From a virus (Duplodnaviria > Heunggongvirae > Uroviricota > Caudoviricetes), in the IMG/VR virus record IMGVR_UViG_2562617151_000005: a stretch of DNA of 23,946 bases; one strand, given 5' to 3'. Both the position numbers and the translations under genes were made by a program. Below, in pieces: positions 3,986 through 23,817 of this stretch (positions within the stretch are counted from its first letter, which is position 1; each line of letters begins with the position of its first letter). The notes under the pieces were generated by a model. The model searched no databases, was not told the origin of the DNA, and saw nothing but the letters and a program-made list of their open reading frames with translations.

Positions 3986-4177
3986 TTAAAGACCTGCCGG
4001 GATTTCGTTATTATCCTGGTGAATAACTTTATCGACCGGGTAACAGTTACCGGGAATTTTCTGTTCGGTTGCTGCAGTCACACACTCCTGCATTGTCCTG
4101 TGAACACTGACTGCAATATCAACTGGCTCTCCGGAAACAAGAAAAACTGTCAGAACAAGTGCAAATGCTGTATTCAT
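3986..4177 (-). CDS. ydfD: YdfD-like small protein with hydrophobic N-terminus (Qin-prophage ydfD homologue)
   Basis: Internal Met of the 81-aa track ORF gives 63 aa MNTAFALVLTVFLVSGEP...; ATG (4177-4175) overlaps the dicB stop (4176-4174) in an ATGA arrangement, i.e. translational coupling. Confidence 0.75.
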   Translation of the reverse strand: MNTAFALVLTVFLVSGEPVDIAVSVHRTMQECVTAATEQKIPGNCYPVDKVIHQDNNEIPAGL

Positions 4178-4362
4178 TGTGCACATCCTTTTTGTATCGG
4201 ACGTAAACGGGCCAGCATTGAAAGAATGCATATTTTATTTAATAACTCCCGTTCGTGTTTTCTCTTGTTAATGGCATCTTCAGTAAATACAGGGTTACTG
4301 ATAGTGACACCAATTTCAAAACAACCTTCAGACGTATTAACGTTTGGTAATAACGTTTCCAT
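4174..4362 (-). CDS. dicB: Cell-division inhibitor DicB
   Basis: 62 aa from internal Met of the 97-aa track ORF: METLLPNVNTSEGCFEIGVTISNPVFTEDAINKRK..., near-identical to K-12 DicB as I recall it; lies immediately downstream of dicF as in Qin. Confidence 0.85.
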   Translation of the reverse strand: METLLPNVNTSEGCFEIGVTISNPVFTEDAINKRKHERELLNKICILSMLARLRPIQKGCAQ

Positions 4363-4531
4363 TATCGCGTCCTCAACAATGAATTTTGTGATGCGGTGCC
4401 TGGTGCCTCCAGGTGACGTTAACCAGTTAACAATTAACGCCGGATACAGAGAATCCACCCATAACACTGTTTTTGGTTTTAACTGTTCCGCGTGCGCTGA
4501 GCCGCATTCACCGCATCACAAAATTCACTTT

Positions 4532-12422: not shown

Positions 12423-12476
12423 TTTTATATTGGCGAGGTGACGGGAGTTAAGTAGAATTGCTGCGGGTGCTTGAGG

Positions 12477-12512
12477 CTATCTGCCTCAGGCATGAACACC
12501 AAAGGCAGATAG
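12477..12512 (+). promoter_or_regulatory. Perfect 10-bp inverted repeat (CTATCTGCCT ... AGGCAGATAG, 16-nt loop) in the hok leader
   Basis: Seen directly; hok-family mRNAs are known to carry extensive leader structure. Confidence 0.4.
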
Positions 12513-12633
12513 AGAAAAGCCCCAGTTAACATTATGCGTCCTGCAAGACGTTTAACATTAATCTGAGGCTCAATCTATGAACGGCAAATCTAGGTTAGCC
12601 TCTTACGTGCCGAAAGGCAAGGAGAAGCAGGCT

Positions 12634-12789
12634 ATGAAGCAGCAAAAGGCGATGTTAATCGCCCTGATCGTCATCTGTTTAACCGTCATAATGACGGCAC
12701 TGGTAACGAGGAAAGACCTCTGCGAGGTACGAATCCGAACCGGCCAGACGGAGGTCGCTGTCTTCACAGCTTACGAACCTGAGGAGTAA
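12634..12789 (+). CDS. hok: Hok/Gef-family type I toxin (HokD/RelF-like)
   Basis: 51 aa MKQQKAMLIALIVICLTVIMTALVTRKDLCEVRIRTGQTEVAVFTAYEPEE; SD AAGGAG 9 nt upstream. Confidence 0.85.
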   Translation: MKQQKAMLIALIVICLTVIMTALVTRKDLCEVRIRTGQTEVAVFTAYEPEE

Positions 12790-14291: not shown

Positions 14292-14672
14292 ATGACTGAA
14301 CGCATAGAATTTGTTTTGCCTTACCCGCCAACGGTGAACACTTACTGGCGTCGTCGTGGCAGCACATATTTTGTATCAAAAGCCGGGGAGCGTTATCGCC
14401 GGGCAGTGGCGCTTATTGTTCGCCAGCAGCGGCTGAAATTAAGCCTGTCCGGAAGGTTGGCAATAAAAATTATTGCAGAACCACCGGATAAGCGCCGCCG
14501 TGACCTGGACAATATTCTGAAAGCGCCGCTGGATGCGCTGACGCATGCGGGGTTGCTAATGGACGATGAGCAGTTTGATGAAATCAATATCGTTCGTGCT
14601 CAGCCAGTATCTGGTGGACGTCTGGGGGTGAAGATTTACCCCATAATGCTTGAAGGGCAGGTCAAAAAATGA
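14292..14672 (+). CDS. rusA: Holliday-junction resolvase RusA
   Basis: 126 aa; conserved RRRDLDN...KAPLDALT...DDEQ block matching RusA. Confidence 0.85.
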   Translation: MTERIEFVLPYPPTVNTYWRRRGSTYFVSKAGERYRRAVALIVRQQRLKLSLSGRLAIKIIAEPPDKRRRDLDNILKAPLDALTHAGLLMDDEQFDEINIVRAQPVSGGRLGVKIYPIMLEGQVKK

Positions 14673-15490
14673 AACTGGAAGATTTACCGAAATACTACTC
14701 CCCAAAATCCCCCGGCCTGACTGATGCATCGGCCTCAACGTCGAAAGATGCGCTGAGTATCACTGATGTGATGGCCGCGCAGGGCATGACACAGAATCGG
14801 GCTGAGATGGGGTTTTCTGCGTTCCTTGGGAAAATGGGCATTAGTATGAATGACAGAGAGCGGGCAACAGAATTGCTGACAGAATATGCACTCAGTCGGT
14901 GTGATCGCGTGGCGGCGTTAAGAAAACTCCCGGCAGAAATAAAACCGGTAGTGATGCGCATTATGGCTTCGTACGCTTTTGAGGATTATGCCCGCAGCGC
15001 AGCGAGTAAAAAGCAGTGCCCTTGTTGCTATGGGGAAAAATTTATTGAAAGCGTAGTTTTTACAAACAAGGTCCAGTATCCGGATGGTAAGCCGCCGGTA
15101 TGGGCAAAGTGTACGAAAGGTGTGTATCCGTCTTACTGGGAAGAATGGAAAAAAGTCAGGGAGGTGGTAAAAGTTGCCTGTCCGGAGTGTGGCGGAAAGG
15201 GTGAGGTTTCCACCGCCTGTAAGGATTGCCGTGGGCGTGGTGTCGCCATTCATCGTGAAGAGTCGGTAAAACGTGGTATGCCTGTTATCAGAGACTGCCA
15301 GCGTTGTGGTGGTCGTGGCTGTGAAAGACTACCATCAACGGAGGCATTTAATGCCATATGCAAAGTGACGAGTGCTATCACGCTTGATACGTGGAAAAAA
15401 TCAGTGAAACGCTTTTACGATACGTTGGTGGTTCGGTTTGACATTGAAGAGGCATGGGCGGAGCGGCAGTTAAAGAGGGTAACGCGATAG
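14669..15490 (+). CDS. Q: Late-gene antiterminator Q (lambda Q family, Cys4 zinc finger)
   Basis: 273 aa; N-terminus and central region align by eye with lambda Q (SPKSP, TDVMAA, ASYAFEDYARSAA); ATGA overlap with rusA stop. Confidence 0.85.
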   Translation: MKLEDLPKYYSPKSPGLTDASASTSKDALSITDVMAAQGMTQNRAEMGFSAFLGKMGISMNDRERATELLTEYALSRCDRVAALRKLPAEIKPVVMRIMASYAFEDYARSAASKKQCPCCYGEKFIESVVFTNKVQYPDGKPPVWAKCTKGVYPSYWEEWKKVREVVKVACPECGGKGEVSTACKDCRGRGVAIHREESVKRGMPVIRDCQRCGGRGCERLPSTEAFNAICKVTSAITLDTWKKSVKRFYDTLVVRFDIEEAWAERQLKRVTR

Positions 15491-15493
15491 TGT

Positions 15494-15523
15494 TGTTGAT
15501 TTTTCCCGAATCTGTGGTAAATT
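15494..15523 (+). promoter_or_regulatory. PR'-like late promoter with -10 TAAATT
   Basis: TGTTGA -35-like, then TAAATTTGCTCTAACGATGGG closely resembling lambda PR' -10 and initial transcribed region; directly downstream of Q. Confidence 0.5.
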
Positions 15524-15572
15524 TGCTCTAACGATGGGCGTTTTATGCCTGACGTTAGAAGATTTTTTACAC

Positions 15573-15596
15573 CCCGCCGCCTGGCGGGTTTTTTAT
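15573..15596 (+). terminator. tR'-like intrinsic terminator (Q-antiterminated)
   Basis: CCCGCC-GCCT-GGCGGG followed by TTTTTTAT, about 60 nt downstream of the PR'-like promoter. Confidence 0.6.
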
Positions 15597-16064: not shown

Positions 16065-17114
16065 ATGCTTAATACTGTAAAAATATCCAGTTGTGAGTTA
16101 ATCAACGCCGACTGCCTGGAATTTATCCGGTCGTTACCCGAAAATTCTGTTGACCTGATAGTCACGGACCCGCCGTACTTTAAAGTGAAGCCTGAGGGCT
16201 GGGATAACCAGTGGAAGGGCGACGATGATTACCTGAAGTGGCTGGACCAGTGTCTGGCGCAGTTCTGGCGGGTGCTGAAACCTGCCGGAAGTCTTTACCT
16301 GTTCTGTGGTCATCGCCTGGCATCTGATATCGAAATCATGATGCGTGAACGCTTCAGTGTGCTGAACCATATTATCTGGGCGAAGCCGTCCGGACGCTGG
16401 AACGGATGCAACAAGGAAAGCCTGCGGGCGTATTTCCCCGCCACAGAGCGCATTCTGTTCGCGGAACATTATCAGGGGCCGTATCGTCCGAAAGATGCCG
16501 GGTATGCGGCGAAGGGCAGTGCACTGAAACAGCATGTGATGGCCCCGCTGATTTCTTACTTTCGTGATGCGCGCGCGGCCCTGGGGATAACGGCAAAACA
16601 GATTGCAGATGCCACAGGAAAGAAAAACATGGTGTCGCACTGGTTCAGTGCCAGTCAGTGGCAGCTACCGAACGAAAGCGATTATCTGAAATTACAGTCG
16701 CTGTTTGCCCGGGTGGCAGAAGAGAAACATCAGCGCGGTGAACTGGAAAAGCCCCACCACCAGCTGGTGGATACGTATACGTCACTGAACCGGCAGTATG
16801 TGGAGCTGCAGAGTGAATATAAGCATCTGCGGCGGTATTTTGGTGTGACGGCGCAGGTGCCGTACACGGATGTGTGGACACATAAACCGGTGCAGTTCTA
16901 TCCCGGGAAACATCCGTGCGAAAAACCGGCAGAAATGCTGCAGCAGATAATCAGCGCAAGCAGTCGTCCGGGTGACCTGGTTGCAGATTTTTTTATGGGC
17001 TCAGGTTCAACGGTAAAAGCGGCACTGGCGCTCGGGCGTCGTGCGATTGGCGTTGAACTGGAGACCGGACGTTTTGAGCAGACAGTCAGGGAAGTTCAGG
17101 ATTTAATCGTTTGA
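16065..17114 (+). CDS. Orphan DNA N6-adenine (or N4-cytosine) methyltransferase, beta-class
   Basis: 349 aa; catalytic DPPY (VTDPPYF) near N-terminus and SAM-binding FxGxG (DFFMGSGST) near C-terminus; no adjacent endonuclease gene. Confidence 0.85.
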   Translation: MLNTVKISSCELINADCLEFIRSLPENSVDLIVTDPPYFKVKPEGWDNQWKGDDDYLKWLDQCLAQFWRVLKPAGSLYLFCGHRLASDIEIMMRERFSVLNHIIWAKPSGRWNGCNKESLRAYFPATERILFAEHYQGPYRPKDAGYAAKGSALKQHVMAPLISYFRDARAALGITAKQIADATGKKNMVSHWFSASQWQLPNESDYLKLQSLFARVAEEKHQRGELEKPHHQLVDTYTSLNRQYVELQSEYKHLRRYFGVTAQVPYTDVWTHKPVQFYPGKHPCEKPAEMLQQIISASSRPGDLVADFFMGSGSTVKAALALGRRAIGVELETGRFEQTVREVQDLIV

Positions 17115-17163
17115 AACGGATGAGATTGCAGAATTAATTACGCACCATTATTATTCTGCTCCC

Positions 17164-17239
17164 GGCCCTTTAGCTCAGTGGTGAGAGCGAGCGACTCATA
17201 ATCGCCAGGTCGCTGGTTCAAATCCAGCAAGGGCCACCA
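17164..17239 (+). tRNA. tRNA with CAU anticodon, Ile2-like (ileX/ileZ type) rather than Met
   Basis: Hand-folded cloverleaf: acceptor GGCCCTT/AAGGGCC, D-stem GCTC/GAGC, anticodon loop CTCATAA, T-loop TTCAAAT, encoded CCA; resembles E. coli ileX from memory. Confidence 0.8.
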
Positions 17240-17246
17240 TCACATA

Positions 17247-17323
17247 CCGCCATTAGCTCATCAGGAAAGAGCGCCAGCCTTCGAAGCTGGTTGCGCGGAG
17301 TTCGGGTCCCCGAAGGCGGTCCA
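17247..17323 (+). tRNA. tRNA-Arg (UCG) with atypical T-arm
   Basis: Hand-fold: acceptor CCGCCAT/AAGGCGG (one A-A mismatch), D-stem GCTC/GAGC, anticodon stem CCAGC/GCTGG, loop CTTCGAA, T-loop TTCGGGT with one T-stem mismatch, encoded CCA. Confidence 0.55.
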
Positions 17324-17336
17324 TTATCTGTATCCT

Positions 17337-17413
17337 GCGTTGTTAGCTCAGCCGGACAGAGCAATTGCCTTCTAAGCAATCGGTCACTGGTTCGAATCCA
17401 GTACAACGCGCCA
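17337..17413 (+). tRNA. tRNA-Arg (UCU)
   Basis: Acceptor GCGTTGT/ACAACGC, D-stem GCTC/GAGC, anticodon loop CTTCTAA, T-loop TTCGAAT, encoded CCA. Confidence 0.85.
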
Positions 17414-17458
17414 CACTTATTTTCCCTGGCTCGCTTTTGCGGGCTTTTTTTTAAATGT

Positions 17459-17672
17459 CTCACAATTCAGGCGGTTGACTGTTGTCTGGTTTGCGGGGAG
17501 TTTGTTAAAAGAAACTGGCATGGTGAATCCCCCTGTGCGGAGGGGCAATCAGCGAGTAGGTATATGGGATAATCGCGGATTCAGGTGCTGGTACTGAATT
17601 CACCGGGAGGCACCCGGCACCATGCAATGGCACATAGCGCCACTCTCCAGCCCCTCTCCGGAGGGGCTTTTC
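17459..17672 (+). other. Structured module A (about 215 bp), candidate sRNA or regulatory leader ending in an intrinsic terminator
   Basis: Shares blocks with module B: CTCACAATTCAG, TTGAC, TTTGTTAAAA, CATGGTGAATCCCCCTGNGCGGAGGGGC, CACCGGGAGGCACCCGGCACCATG, and terminator GCCCCTC-TCCG-GAGGGGC plus T-run. Confidence 0.4.
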
Positions 17673-17926
17673 TGTGCCGGATACATCACAGTTTCTGGAA
17701 CCTTAGGTACTACAGTATCAGTCAGGGTGCTATATTTTCAGATGTGATGAAAGCCTGTCAGCAGGCAGGGCGTATCGGAAATGACCCAGTAGAGAAAACG
17801 TTGACTCAGATACCGGTGCTGAGTTACCGGGAAACCGGCATCACATGACCGCTATCCTTCCAGGCCCATCCGCTCCGGTGGGCCTTTTTACTGCAGAAAA
17901 CAGGTTCCCCGTTAAATGCTATGTTG

Positions 17927-18160
17927 CTCACAATTCAGTAAGTTGACAGTTGCCTGTCAGACTGGGCATTTGTTAAAAAAATTTCGCATGGTGAATCCCC
18001 CTGAGCGGAGGGGCGACTGGTGACGGTATAATCTCTGATTATCAAAACGAGAATGACGCGGGTTTAGTGGCACCGGGCTGAACTCACCGGGAGGCACCCG
18101 GCACCATGTGCATGATGATACAGATACGCGGCTTTAGCCCCTCTCCGGAGGGGCTTTCTT
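17927..18160 (+). other. Structured module B, paralogue of module A with a TTGACA -35-like hexamer
   Basis: Same conserved blocks in the same order as module A; identical terminator hairpin at 18137-18154 followed by T-rich tract. Confidence 0.4.
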
Positions 18161-18166
18161 ATGGAC

Positions 18167-18195
18167 AAAAAAAGCCCGCGCTGGGAGACGCGGGC
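18167..18195 (-). terminator. Candidate minus-strand intrinsic terminator
   Basis: Plus strand reads A-run, then GCCCGCG-N8-CGCGGGC; on the minus strand this is a GC hairpin followed by a U-run. Confidence 0.3.
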
Positions 18196-18388
18196 GGCAA
18201 GGAATAAACAATAAAACGTGAAGTAATATTTCAGCTGGCGAATAATACCCCATAGTAATCACTCTGCGCAACTGCGCGGTCTTTTTCGAATTGCGGGCTG
18301 TAGTCTCCCTTCTGCCATTGTCCTGTAACTTCCGGACTTCAGCCTGCTCCTTATCTGACTCACAACATTATCCCGCCCGGGAGGATTC

Positions 18389-19423
18389 ATGGCATTTAAA
18401 CACTATGACGTGGTCAGGGCGGCATCGCCGTCAGACCTTGCGAAACGACTGACACAAAAACTGAAGGAGGGCTGGCAGCCGTTTGGTAGTCCGGTGGCCA
18501 TAACCCCTTATACCCTGATGCAGGCGATTGCAGCAGAAGGTGATGTGGTCGTCAGTGGTGCAACTGAGCCGGAGTGGTACTACGTCATCGTACTGGCCGG
18601 GCAATCCAATGCCATGGCTTACGGTGAAGGGCTTCCGCTTCCGGATTCATACGATGCGCCCCATCCGCGCATTAAGCAACTGGCCCGTCGTAACACAGTG
18701 ACTCCCGGTGGTGAAGTATGCGTATTTAACGACATCATTCCTGCTGACCATTGTCTGCATGATGTTCAGGATATGAGTACGATTAACCATCCCCGGGCTG
18801 ACCTGAGCAAAGGGCAGTACGGCTGTGTCGGACAGGGCTTACATATTGCCAAAAAACTGCTTCCGTATATCCCTAATAATGCGGGGATCCTGCTGGTACC
18901 ATGCTGTCGTGGTGGTTCGGCATTCACCCAGGGCACGGAGGGGACATTCAGCGAGTCCACGGGAGCCAGTCAGGATTCGGCTCGCTGGGGAGTGGGTAAG
19001 CCGTTATATCAGGATCTGCTTTTCCGCACGAAGGCAGCATTGCAGAAAAACCCGAAAAACGTTTTGCTGGCGATATGCTGGATGCAGGGGGAATTCGATA
19101 TGACGAATGCCAGTTACGCCCAGCAGCCAGCAGCATTTCTTGCAATGGTACAGCAGTTCCGTGCTGACCTTGCCGGGCTGGCAGCGCAGTGTCACGGTGG
19201 AAGTCCGGCATCAGTCCCCTGGATTTGTGGCGACACGACATACGCGTGGAAACAAGAACACGGTACGCAATATGAAGTGGTATATGGTGCATATAAAGGT
19301 AAAGAATCCCAGCAGATTTATTTTGTTCCCTTTATGACCGATGGTAGCGGAGTTAATACACCGACAAACAACCCGTCAGAAGATCCTGATACCTGCAGGA
19401 GTACATCAGGACGCAGTGCTTAA
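18389..19423 (+). CDS. nanS: NanS-like 9-O-acetyl sialate esterase (SGNH hydrolase) of the prophage nanS-p type
   Basis: 344 aa; SD GGGAGG upstream; GQSN motif (VLAGQSNAMAYGEG) typical of SGNH/SASA esterases; N-terminus MAFKHYDVVRAASP... resembles YjhS/NanS from memory. Confidence 0.75.
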   Translation: MAFKHYDVVRAASPSDLAKRLTQKLKEGWQPFGSPVAITPYTLMQAIAAEGDVVVSGATEPEWYYVIVLAGQSNAMAYGEGLPLPDSYDAPHPRIKQLARRNTVTPGGEVCVFNDIIPADHCLHDVQDMSTINHPRADLSKGQYGCVGQGLHIAKKLLPYIPNNAGILLVPCCRGGSAFTQGTEGTFSESTGASQDSARWGVGKPLYQDLLFRTKAALQKNPKNVLLAICWMQGEFDMTNASYAQQPAAFLAMVQQFRADLAGLAAQCHGGSPASVPWICGDTTYAWKQEHGTQYEVVYGAYKGKESQQIYFVPFMTDGSGVNTPTNNPSEDPDTCRSTSGRSA

Positions 19424-23179: not shown

Positions 23180-23763
23180 TGGCATTCAGAATGAGTGAAC
23201 AACCACGGACCATAAAAATTTATAATCTGCTGGCCGGAACTAATGAATTTATTGGTGAAGGTGATGCATATATTCCGCCTCATACAGGTCTGCCAGCAAA
23301 CAGTACCGATATTGCACCACCAGATATTCCTGCTGGCTTTGTGGCTGTTTTCAACAGTGATGAGGCATCGTGGCATCTCGTTGAAGACCATCGGGGTAAA
23401 ACGGTTTATGACGTAGCGTCAGGGGACGAGTTATTTATTTCTGAACTCGGTCCGTTACCGGAAAATGTTACCTGGTTATCGCCGGAAGGGGAGTTTCAGA
23501 AGTGGAACGGCACAGCCTGGGTGAAGGATACGGAAGCAGAAAAACTGTTCCGGATCCGGGAGGCGGAAGAAACAAAAAACAACCTGATGCAGGTAGCCAG
23601 TGAGCATATTGCGCCGCTTCAGGATGCTGCAGATCTGGAAATTGCAACGGAGGAAGAAACCTCATTGCTGGAAGCCTGGAAAAAGTATCGGGTGTTGCTG
23701 AACCGTGTTGATACATCAACTGCACCTGATATTGAGTGGCCTACGAACCCTGTCAGGGAGTAA
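23179..23763 (+). CDS. tfa: Tail fibre assembly protein (Tfa)
   Basis: 194 aa [39 protein letters not shown]... recognised as the lambdoid Tfa family; TAATG overlap with upstream stop. Confidence 0.8.
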
Positions 23764-23817
23764 TCATTGGGATTATGCCGCAGCACGTCTTAAGCAAGAA
23801 CGTGCTGCGGTTGGATG

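Follow-up and report, generated by a model that had tools for sequence, protein, structure and literature searches.

A putative tandem array of three STnc100-type small RNA genes in the late operon of a lambdoid prophage

Crosslinking to Hfq in Escherichia coli O157 Sakai revealed convergent pairs of Hfq-binding small RNAs (sRNAs) at the moron site, 3' of the late promoter pR', in at least eight lambdoid prophages (Tree et al. 2014, PMC4104026). These dyads lie between pR' and the lysis genes. In prophage Sp5, the sense RNA EcOnc27 faces the antisense RNA AsxR just 3' of stx2B (PMC4104026). On Northern blots, EcOnc27 (plus strand) appeared at ~235/247 nt, and its 247-nt form was destabilised without Hfq; in Sp4, EcOnc05 (plus strand, ~222 nt) was positive in 5/5 passes of Hfq crosslinking and analysis of cDNA (CRAC), with a peak at 1179806-1179914, and the convergent EcOnc08/21 (minus strand, ~271 nt) also gave Hfq-CRAC peaks (PMC4104026 Table S2). 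EcOnc04, EcOnc05, EcOnc27 and EcOnc28 of Sakai, with sRNA103 of EDL933, make up the STnc100 family, a sister group of the PasD sRNAs. Here we describe a related locus in a 23,946-nt viral record (IMG/VR IMGVR_UViG_2562617151_000005; this whole stretch is called the window), in which two similar modules, A and B, and a divergent copy between them appear to be STnc100-type genes in tandem.

EcOnc27 is the sRNA103 of EDL933, and its overexpression raises fimZ and espA transcripts. STnc100 has been reported in outer-membrane vesicles of Shiga toxin-producing E. coli, and variants of the Stx2-phage STnc100 copy were reported to be among the features predictive of haemolytic uraemic syndrome (PMC12711010). 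According to a 2026 preprint from the Storz laboratory, STnc100 and the sRNAs PasD1/2 of enteropathogenic E. coli (EPEC) share an ancestor. PasD1/2 are Hfq-dependent, and RIL-seq, which ligates interacting RNAs before sequencing them, assigned them the seed UGUGAG, complementary to CUCACA in their targets. PasD2 is also the most abundant partner in CsrA-bound RNA-RNA chimeras in EPEC. A tandem STnc100 array was not found described in the literature searched.

Modules A (17459-17672) and B (17927-18162), both on the plus strand, are paralogues with 79% column identity in a pairwise alignment of 17440-17690 with 17905-18185. An exact 25-nt block, TCACCGGGAGGCACCCGGCACCATG, lies at 17600-17624 in A and at 18084-18108 in B, and its occurrence twice within 700 nt rules out chance. 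A second block, GCATGGTGAATCCCCCTG-N-GCGGAGGGGC, at 17518-17546 and 17986-18014, has an exact 18-nt part and a single mismatch between the modules. Both also carry the 5' box CTCACAATTCAG and end in the same terminator hairpin, AGCCCCTCTCCGGAGGGGCT (17649-17668 in A, 18136-18155 in B), followed by short, interrupted T-runs, TTTTCTG and TTTCTTA, respectively. Terminator-like sites are enriched across the array region, with 10 observed and 1.8 expected in shuffles. An initial annotation of the window had read A and B as paralogous elements with ordered conserved blocks and a common terminator hairpin; the alignment and the terminator scan confirm this.

The window was scanned against Rfam 15 at curated thresholds, the gathering score of RF02076 (STnc100) being 47 bits. 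Module A scored 136.3 bits (E 2.7e-30, 17489-17679) and module B 165.4 bits (E 9e-38, 17957-18166), each over model positions 1-206. Judging from these matches, A and B are in all probability STnc100-family sRNA genes. Module A begins with a 5' leader, composed of the box CUCACAAUUCAG and a small hairpin, before a scaffold at 17517-17626 that comprises P1 (GCAUGGUG/CACCAUGC) and then P2, P4 and P5. The linker, CAAUGGCACAUAGCGCCACUCUCCA (17627-17648), and the terminator with its U-run follow. The scaffold scores 112 bits with a scaffold-only covariance model, R1, built from 23 homologues with the middle copy and PasD2 left out. Because module A is identical at 212/212 positions to the Sakai Sp4 locus (L244:1416-1627), where a single STnc100 copy sits directly 3' of argO, it is EcOnc05 itself, and the Hfq-CRAC peak of EcOnc05 projects onto window positions 17550-17658. 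Module B (98.7 bits with R1) has its scaffold at 17985-18110 and a linker, UGCAUGAUGAUACAGAUACGCGGCUUUA (18111-18135), unlike that of A, ahead of the shared terminator. Its nearest relative among the compared loci is the 933W/Sp5 copy, EcOnc27/sRNA103, with 192/241 identities (80%). From the published Northern sizes (222-247 nt), the long forms would begin near 17451-17462 for A and near 17925 for B, in agreement with the module boundaries initially drawn.

The stretch between A and B had been taken for a divergent linker. Instead, 17680-17925 holds a third, divergent copy (17718-17891, plus strand). At relaxed thresholds it matches RF02076 over its full length with 30.1 bits (E 4e-5 locally, 0.004 when the entire window is searched), and because this is below the gathering score, threshold-based annotation would miss it. 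R1, from which it had been withheld, finds it with 36.9 bits (E 4e-7). Its scaffold, 17741-17847, retains all four helices with compensatory changes: P1 AUGUGAUG/CAUCACAU, P2 CCUGU/GCAGG, P4 GACUCAG/CUGAGU and a shortened P5, CCGG-GAAA-CCGG. The linker GACCGCUAUCCUUCCA (17848-17861) leads into its own terminator at 17862-17885 and UUUUU. Two versions of the middle element exist, which together are found in 673/5426 complete E. coli genomes; E. coli ATCC 11775 / DSM 30083 matches the window with 100% identity over 17690-17925. The version with 89.7% identity resides in a different prophage (Q, tRNA-Ile, DUF3927, array, iraM), again flanked by two STnc100 copies. The two versions differ mostly in P2 and the terminator, and the P2 exchanges (C-G to U-A, U-G to C-G) keep the pairing in both, while the remaining scaffold is almost invariant. 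As the changes in P2 and the terminator preserve pairing, the middle copy is better seen as a maintained gene than as debris.

Homologues for the structural analysis were collected from IMG/VR with an exact 23-nt pattern, which yielded 128 instances (84 unique sequences, 57 distinct scaffolds). Twenty-six non-redundant scaffolds, the two middle copies, a divergent copy from L245 and PasD2 were then aligned (n = 30). In this alignment, 93.9% of the cells of the four-helix structure are standard pairs, compared with 40-47% when the partners are slid by 1-3 columns; PasD2, which is without P5, is misaligned at its 3' end and adds a few unpaired cells. Double-sided changes are found in 14/26 pairs, including 8/8 pairs of P4, and 0/500 shuffles reach the observed covariation values. 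Compensatory changes in these 30 diverse homologues thus support helices P1, P2 and P4. When A and B are folded by minimum free energy, P1, P2, P4, P5 and the terminator all reappear. On the 24-kb window, R1 recovers exactly four scaffolds, namely A, B, the middle copy and one in the dicF-dicB spacer, with everything else no better than E 0.6. A pattern with 15 specified bases, GCATGGTGAATCCNCC, gave only chance matches in unrelated phyla when run on genome contigs. Together, the Rfam family match, the published transcripts of the Sakai Sp4 and 933W/Sp5 loci, the covarying hairpins and the lack of a conserved reading frame bear out the initial annotation of A and B as structured, non-coding prophage sRNA elements; the three observations named there as grounds for refuting it (no transcript, no covariation, a coding remnant) were not borne out.

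One group of IMG/VR variants (s7, s16, s25, s31 and s52) replaces P2 CCCCU/AGGGG with CUUUC/GAAAG, a fully compensatory exchange. Their linker starts with ACAACAACAAUACAG, CA-rich and of the GcvB-bound kind, and they have a canonical TTGACC-N18-TAACTT promoter with the start at P1.

Like the published STnc100 members, A and B have the family's helices, terminator and full-length model match, occupy the place between the late promoter and tRNAs (or stx2B) and nanS, and are convergent with a minus-strand Hfq sRNA. They differ in number, since the gene is threefold in tandem here, whereas the experimentally examined Sakai Sp4 and 933W cases are single copy. In phage 933W, the STnc100 match (208 bits) starts 75 nt after stx2B and is immediately followed on the opposite strand by AsxR (88.1 bits); the EcOnc27 probe of the published Northern blot corresponds to the 933W linker in reverse complement. 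The likeness to PasD1/PasD2 (EPEC E2348/69; homologue of EcOnc13) extends to P1, the GGUGAAUCC box, P2, P4, the terminator and the place by a nanS or holin gene. PasD is Hfq-dependent and has its UGUGAG seed in the linker, a few nucleotides 5' of the terminator. Against the STnc100 model the PasD loci score 41.4 and 37.7 bits, below threshold, as does the middle copy. However, PasD has neither P5 nor the long CUCACAAUUCAG leader and starts at P1 from a canonical TTGACT-N18-TAAAAA promoter, whereas P5 is present in all three array copies, and the window does not contain the PasD linker, CCUUGUGAGUUCUGG. Aligned locally to the PasD loci, module A reaches at best 97/146 and module B 36/47, and neither module is assigned to PasD.

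We propose that the locus is a head-to-tail array of three Hfq-binding STnc100 sRNA genes in the moron zone of a lambdoid late operon, placed between the ileZ-argN-argO tRNAs and nanS-p and facing a convergent minus-strand Hfq-binding RNA of the EcOnc08/21 type. Each gene would consist of an optional leader of ~60 nt starting with CUCACAAUUCAG, a scaffold of ~110 nt in which the closing helix P1 encloses hairpins P2, P4 and P5, a short, single-stranded, copy-specific linker and, last, its intrinsic terminator. Each unit would, in the lysogen, be transcribed alone and stop at its own terminator. Hfq would bind the 3' part (P5, linker and terminator), and the linker would act as the seed for pairing, either with mRNAs of host or prophage or with other sRNAs. 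A single prophage would then provide three regulators that share a scaffold but differ in specificity. Once the prophage is induced, RNA polymerase modified by Q and starting at pR' would read through the three terminators into nanS and beyond. We lean slightly towards a seed function of the linker, because the PasD seed lies in the equivalent linker and the Hfq peaks of EcOnc27 and EcOnc05 cover P5, linker and terminator. With their C/U-rich ends, the linkers of A and of the middle copy would be suited to pair with ribosome-binding sites. The promoters and targets of the modules are putative, and module B and the middle copy are predicted from sequence to be expressed.

Several points weigh against this model. 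The effects of sRNA103 on fimZ and espA were described as probably indirect, which leaves direct targets of STnc100 members putative. Module B, in its exact sequence, and the middle copy are absent at the examined loci of the experimentally studied strains Sakai, EDL933/933W and E2348/69. The fold z-scores are modest (-1.7, -2.2 and -1.6), such that stability alone is not convincing, and when the long form of module A is folded by minimum free energy, its linker pairs with the leader instead of remaining free. The search pattern fixed P5 and the 3' strand of P1, so that pattern-found sequences carry no information on their covariation; covariation of P5 rests only on the middle copies, the single L245 copy and the copy in the dicB leader. 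A sigma-70 consensus scan found no plus-strand promoter for any module. Lastly, the scaffold is conserved beyond what a stability element would need and also occurs in an mRNA leader, that of the dicF-dicB spacer.

Candidate promoter elements can be named for the modules. TTAAAT at 17451-17456 may be the -10 element of the long form of module A, with its equivalent for module B at 17912-17917. Further candidates are TGtTAAAAG/A just before P1 and, for the middle copy, an extended TGcTATATT at 17728-17736. Ahead of the CTCACAATTCAG box, TTAAAT, TAAAAT or TGTAAT recurs in numerous upstream contexts that are unrelated to one another. Three classes of upstream region occur: a long leader, TTAAAT-NN-CTCACAATTCAG followed by a hairpin, the class to which A and B belong; a PasD-like TTGATT-N18-TAAAAA promoter with the start at P1; and TTGACC-N18-TAACTT, also with the start at P1. 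TTGAC(T/A) at 17475 and 17943 was rejected as a -35 element, as the nearest acceptable -10 is 25 nt away and the published sizes of 222-247 nt put the 5' ends ~15 nt upstream.

The number of copies and their combinations vary between prophages. The three-copy array is present in 353/5426 complete E. coli genomes (at least 80% coverage of 17440-18290), and some STnc100-like DNA in 2870/5426, about half. The scaffold is much more conserved than the linkers. Among the 128 IMG/VR instances, the 57 scaffolds are accompanied by 48 distinct tails: module-A-type scaffolds occur with five different linker/terminator tails, the module-B scaffold with the tail of either B or A, and one tail can be found on several scaffolds. 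Hybrids of an STnc100 scaffold with PasD-like flanks are also present. In the Sakai Sp4 locus, module A is joined to the flank that lies 3' of module B, as would be expected had the identical terminators recombined with each other. In L187 (IMGVR_UViG_2698536657_000017, 1487-1784) two scaffolds lie 275 nt apart, compared with 484 in the window, in direct tandem without a middle module. Together with single-copy hybrids in O157, O103 and O55 genomes, this gives a copy number ranging from 1 to 3. OmrA/OmrB, PrrF1/2 and Qrr1-5 are likewise adjacent paralogues that share a structural or Hfq-binding part. They belong to the core genome and have a conserved seed and a variable remainder, whereas in the array it is the scaffold that is conserved, the presumed seed varies and copy number changes through prophage recombination.

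The fourth scaffold in the window lies on the minus strand, in the dicF-dicB spacer (4390-4517; 51.8 bits with R1, E 1e-10). Against RF02076 this region (4539-4330) scores 37.7 bits (E 4.7e-5), below the 47-bit threshold. P1 is GAUGCGGUG/CACCGCAUC and P5 is CCUGG-AGGCA-CCAGG; P1, P4 and P5 all carry compensatory changes, which in P5 are double (CCUGG/CCAGG). DicF is at 4588-4537 (minus strand), and the scaffold begins ~20 nt past its terminator and ends ~40 nt before the dicB start codon (~4362). The open reading frame (ORF) at 4174-4467 (minus strand) contains the DicB sequence, and homologous DNA is annotated as dicB in other genomes. The spacer is conserved in 3937/5426 complete E. coli genomes, and none of the STnc100 literature searched concerns the dicBF operon. 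As the same scaffold is found here, it is not confined to terminator-ended sRNAs. This occurrence in an mRNA leader, the extreme conservation of the scaffold and the PasD2/CsrA chimeras raise the possibility of a function of its own, which the model of three linker-guided sRNAs leaves unexplained. Tentatively, and with considerable doubt, the ~110-nt scaffold could be an autonomous mobile RNA domain with such a function (protein binding, for example by CsrA, or RNA processing or insulation), and the cryptic middle copy would, as part of the same proposal, represent a third, unannotated STnc100 subfamily.

Alternatively, the scaffold could be mainly a cis-acting or protein-binding domain, either an insulator for processing or stability or a platform for CsrA, with the sRNAs as by-products of terminator-bounded copies. 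The spacer, with the same fold followed by an ORF rather than a terminator in 3937/5426 genomes, would suit this reading, as would the far stronger conservation of the scaffold than of the linkers, several GGA/GGAGG motifs at hairpin tops and the position of PasD2 as the top partner in CsrA-bound chimeras. However, Hfq binding and Hfq-dependent stability were shown for EcOnc05/27 and PasD, the defined seed of PasD is matched by a motif in the RNAs it targets, and the late-region copies have their own terminators and diversified linkers, the pattern expected from selection on trans-acting specificity. We therefore consider a mainly cis-acting role unlikely, noting that the two ideas are not mutually exclusive.

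The convergent partner of the array is a minus-strand RNA gene at 18174-18340, possibly extending to ~18445, identified by terminator scan and flank alignment as a homologue of Sakai EcOnc08/EcOnc21. Its terminator, GCCCGCGTCTCCCAGCGCGGGC-TTTTTTT (18195-18174), is 12 nt from the end of module B, and the 3' flank of module B, this terminator included, is almost base-for-base that of Sakai Sp4 (L244:1617-1862, the EcOnc08/21 region). By analogy, an RNA of ~271 nt of the EcOnc08/21 type would be antisense to the nanS-p ribosome-binding site and start codon (18389). The 3' end of the minus-strand RNA resembles an EPEC RIL-seq sRNA candidate, E2348C_1409.E2348C_1408.IGR. AsxR and AgvB occupy the same locus type as convergent minus-strand partners of STnc100-type genes, and likewise combine a conserved part with a variable specificity part, but they measure 51-60 nt, are on the opposite strand and are unrelated to STnc100 in sequence. 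Their models (AsxR, RF02703; AgvB, RF02702) gave no match at E up to 5 in 17100-18450, and with the 933W control returning AsxR at 88.1 bits at the equivalent place, they were rejected as the identity of the minus-strand partner.

In the 5' leader of nanS-p (18350-18388, plus strand), CUCACAACAUUAUCCCG stands just before the Shine-Dalgarno sequence GGGAGGA. CUCACA is the motif enriched in PasD RIL-seq targets, and CACAACA is the GcvB-type target box cited for AgvB. The CUCACAAUUCAG box at the head of modules A and B is similar to that of the nanS-p leader.

The modules might also be sponges (anti-sRNAs) like AgvB and AsxR, in which the 5' box CUCACAAUUCAG would titrate another sRNA by mimicking its target site. 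CUCACAA shows perfect complementarity to UUGUGAG, the PasD seed region, and equals the CUCACA motif of PasD RIL-seq targets; CA-rich CACAA boxes are of the GcvB target type. Some family members have ACAACAACAAUA in the linker, and sponges are documented at the same locus type. Yet RNAs of this size can match over 7 nt by chance, and the presence of the box in the mature RNA depends on where the 5' end lies. The window is itself without PasD, as none of its four scaffold copies has the CCUUGUGAGUUCUGG linker, and PasD reaches 38-41 bits against the Rfam model. We give the sponge explanation little credence.

The surroundings of the array are those of a lambdoid late region. The Q gene (14669-15490; Pfam PF03589, E 5e-51) is followed by pR' (TTGATT-N16-TAAATT, 15495-15522), TGCTCTAACGATGGG, a methylase gene, the tRNAs, the array and nanS, in synteny with 933W and Sakai Sp4. 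We take pR' and TGCTCTAACGATGGG to resemble lambda pR'. The tR' terminator (15573-15588 and T-run, the pair together spanning 15495-15594 on the plus strand) is strong, CCCGCCGCCTGGCGGG-TTTTTT. This pR'/tR' pair would give a leader RNA of ~65-70 nt, the positional equivalent of lambda 6S RNA or StxS. ARAGORN places tRNA(CAT) Ile, tRNA-Arg(TCG) and tRNA-Arg(TCT), corresponding to ileZ-argN-argO, at 17164-17413; the tRNA-cluster terminator (hairpin 17428-17445 and T-run) and the conserved TTAAAT follow (17428-17456, plus strand). The homologous region of E. coli NZ_CP062910 encodes RusA, Q, a small ORF, a DNA methyltransferase, tRNA-Ile/Arg/Arg, the modules, a SASA/NanS-type esterase, holin, lysozyme and Rz, with the modules free of RNA annotation. 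With the tRNAs on one side and the esterase ORF from 18389 on the other, the array lies between the Ile/Arg tRNAs and nanS, as first annotated. The accompanying claim that the modules occupy the stx slot did not hold: in 933W the order is argO terminator, stx2AB, STnc100, which makes the modules the constant 3' neighbour of the slot and not its occupant.

These positions also bear on whether the modules are leader RNAs of the pR' type, which would stop at tR' as lambda 6S RNA and StxS do. Each unit is short, terminator-ended and in the late region, with TAAAT-like -10 elements before it, and StxS shows that pR' leaders can be Hfq sRNAs. StxS and lambda 6S RNA resemble the modules as short, terminator-ended late-region RNAs read through by Q-modified polymerase, but they start at pR' directly after Q, where the window has its own pR'/tR' pair. 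The array lies 1.9 kb downstream of that pair, inside the Q-dependent late transcription unit, past the methylase gene and three tRNAs, so the modules are not the pR' leader. In 933W, too, pR', qut and tR' are annotated upstream of the tRNAs and STnc100 downstream of stx2B, and three serial Q-loading promoters would be without precedent. We rejected this reading as very improbable.

That the modules are remnants of a duplicated protein gene, or encode a small protein from the conserved ATG, deserves next to no credence and was rejected: the scaffolds vary in length across all three classes modulo 3 (27, 19 and 11 variants), no frame is open in all variants (minimum open spans 24-60 nt), the plus-strand ORFs from the conserved ATG (41 and 33 aa) differ between A and B except over the terminator, five candidate ORFs have no Pfam match, and substitutions track base-pairing and not codons. 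In its favour, the Prokaryotic Genome Annotation Pipeline (PGAP) annotates a minus-strand, partial pseudo-'hypothetical protein' over the module A homologue (L001 11010-11135) and over E2348/69 PasD2, and a single minus-strand frame remains open over 150 nt or more in 70% of variants, a figure dominated by near-identical module-A-type sequences. The PGAP prediction is best explained as an annotation artefact. The earlier statement that no convincing ribosome-binding site precedes the conserved ATG needs correcting: a GGAGG does lie 11 nt upstream, but it is buried in P5 and the ORFs are unconserved.

Other features of the window were recorded alongside. At the junction 19390/19391, 2865 bp are absent relative to the intact homologue L001 (12894-15758), namely the 3' half of nanS-p, holin, ydfR, lysozyme and most of Rz. 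The prophage of the window is consequently without a lysis cassette, and its nanS ORF is truncated to 344 aa. Rfam also matched the sok antitoxin RNA beside hokD (12465-12639, plus strand, 112.6 bits), IS009 in the terminase region (23522-23720, plus strand, 225 bits) and, weakly and below threshold, a CssrB-like sequence (23747-23809, plus strand, 32.6 bits).

The finding is a correct rediscovery of a catalogued sRNA family and not a new element. The tandem triplication, the sub-threshold middle copy, the shuffling of scaffolds and linkers and the dicF-dicB scaffold appear to be undescribed, modest extensions. The STnc100 family sits directly beside Shiga-toxin genes. A copy number that ranges from 1 to 3 through recombination, a presumed seed that is swapped between otherwise conserved scaffolds and a divergent copy that escapes threshold-based annotation all matter for studies of strain-specific riboregulation. 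If the scaffold is indeed an autonomous domain, lambdoid prophages would deploy it both before an ORF, as in the dicB leader, and as the body of sRNAs, and new combinations of seed and scaffold would arise through tandem arrays and through recombination at the identical terminators and the invariant P5/P1 block.

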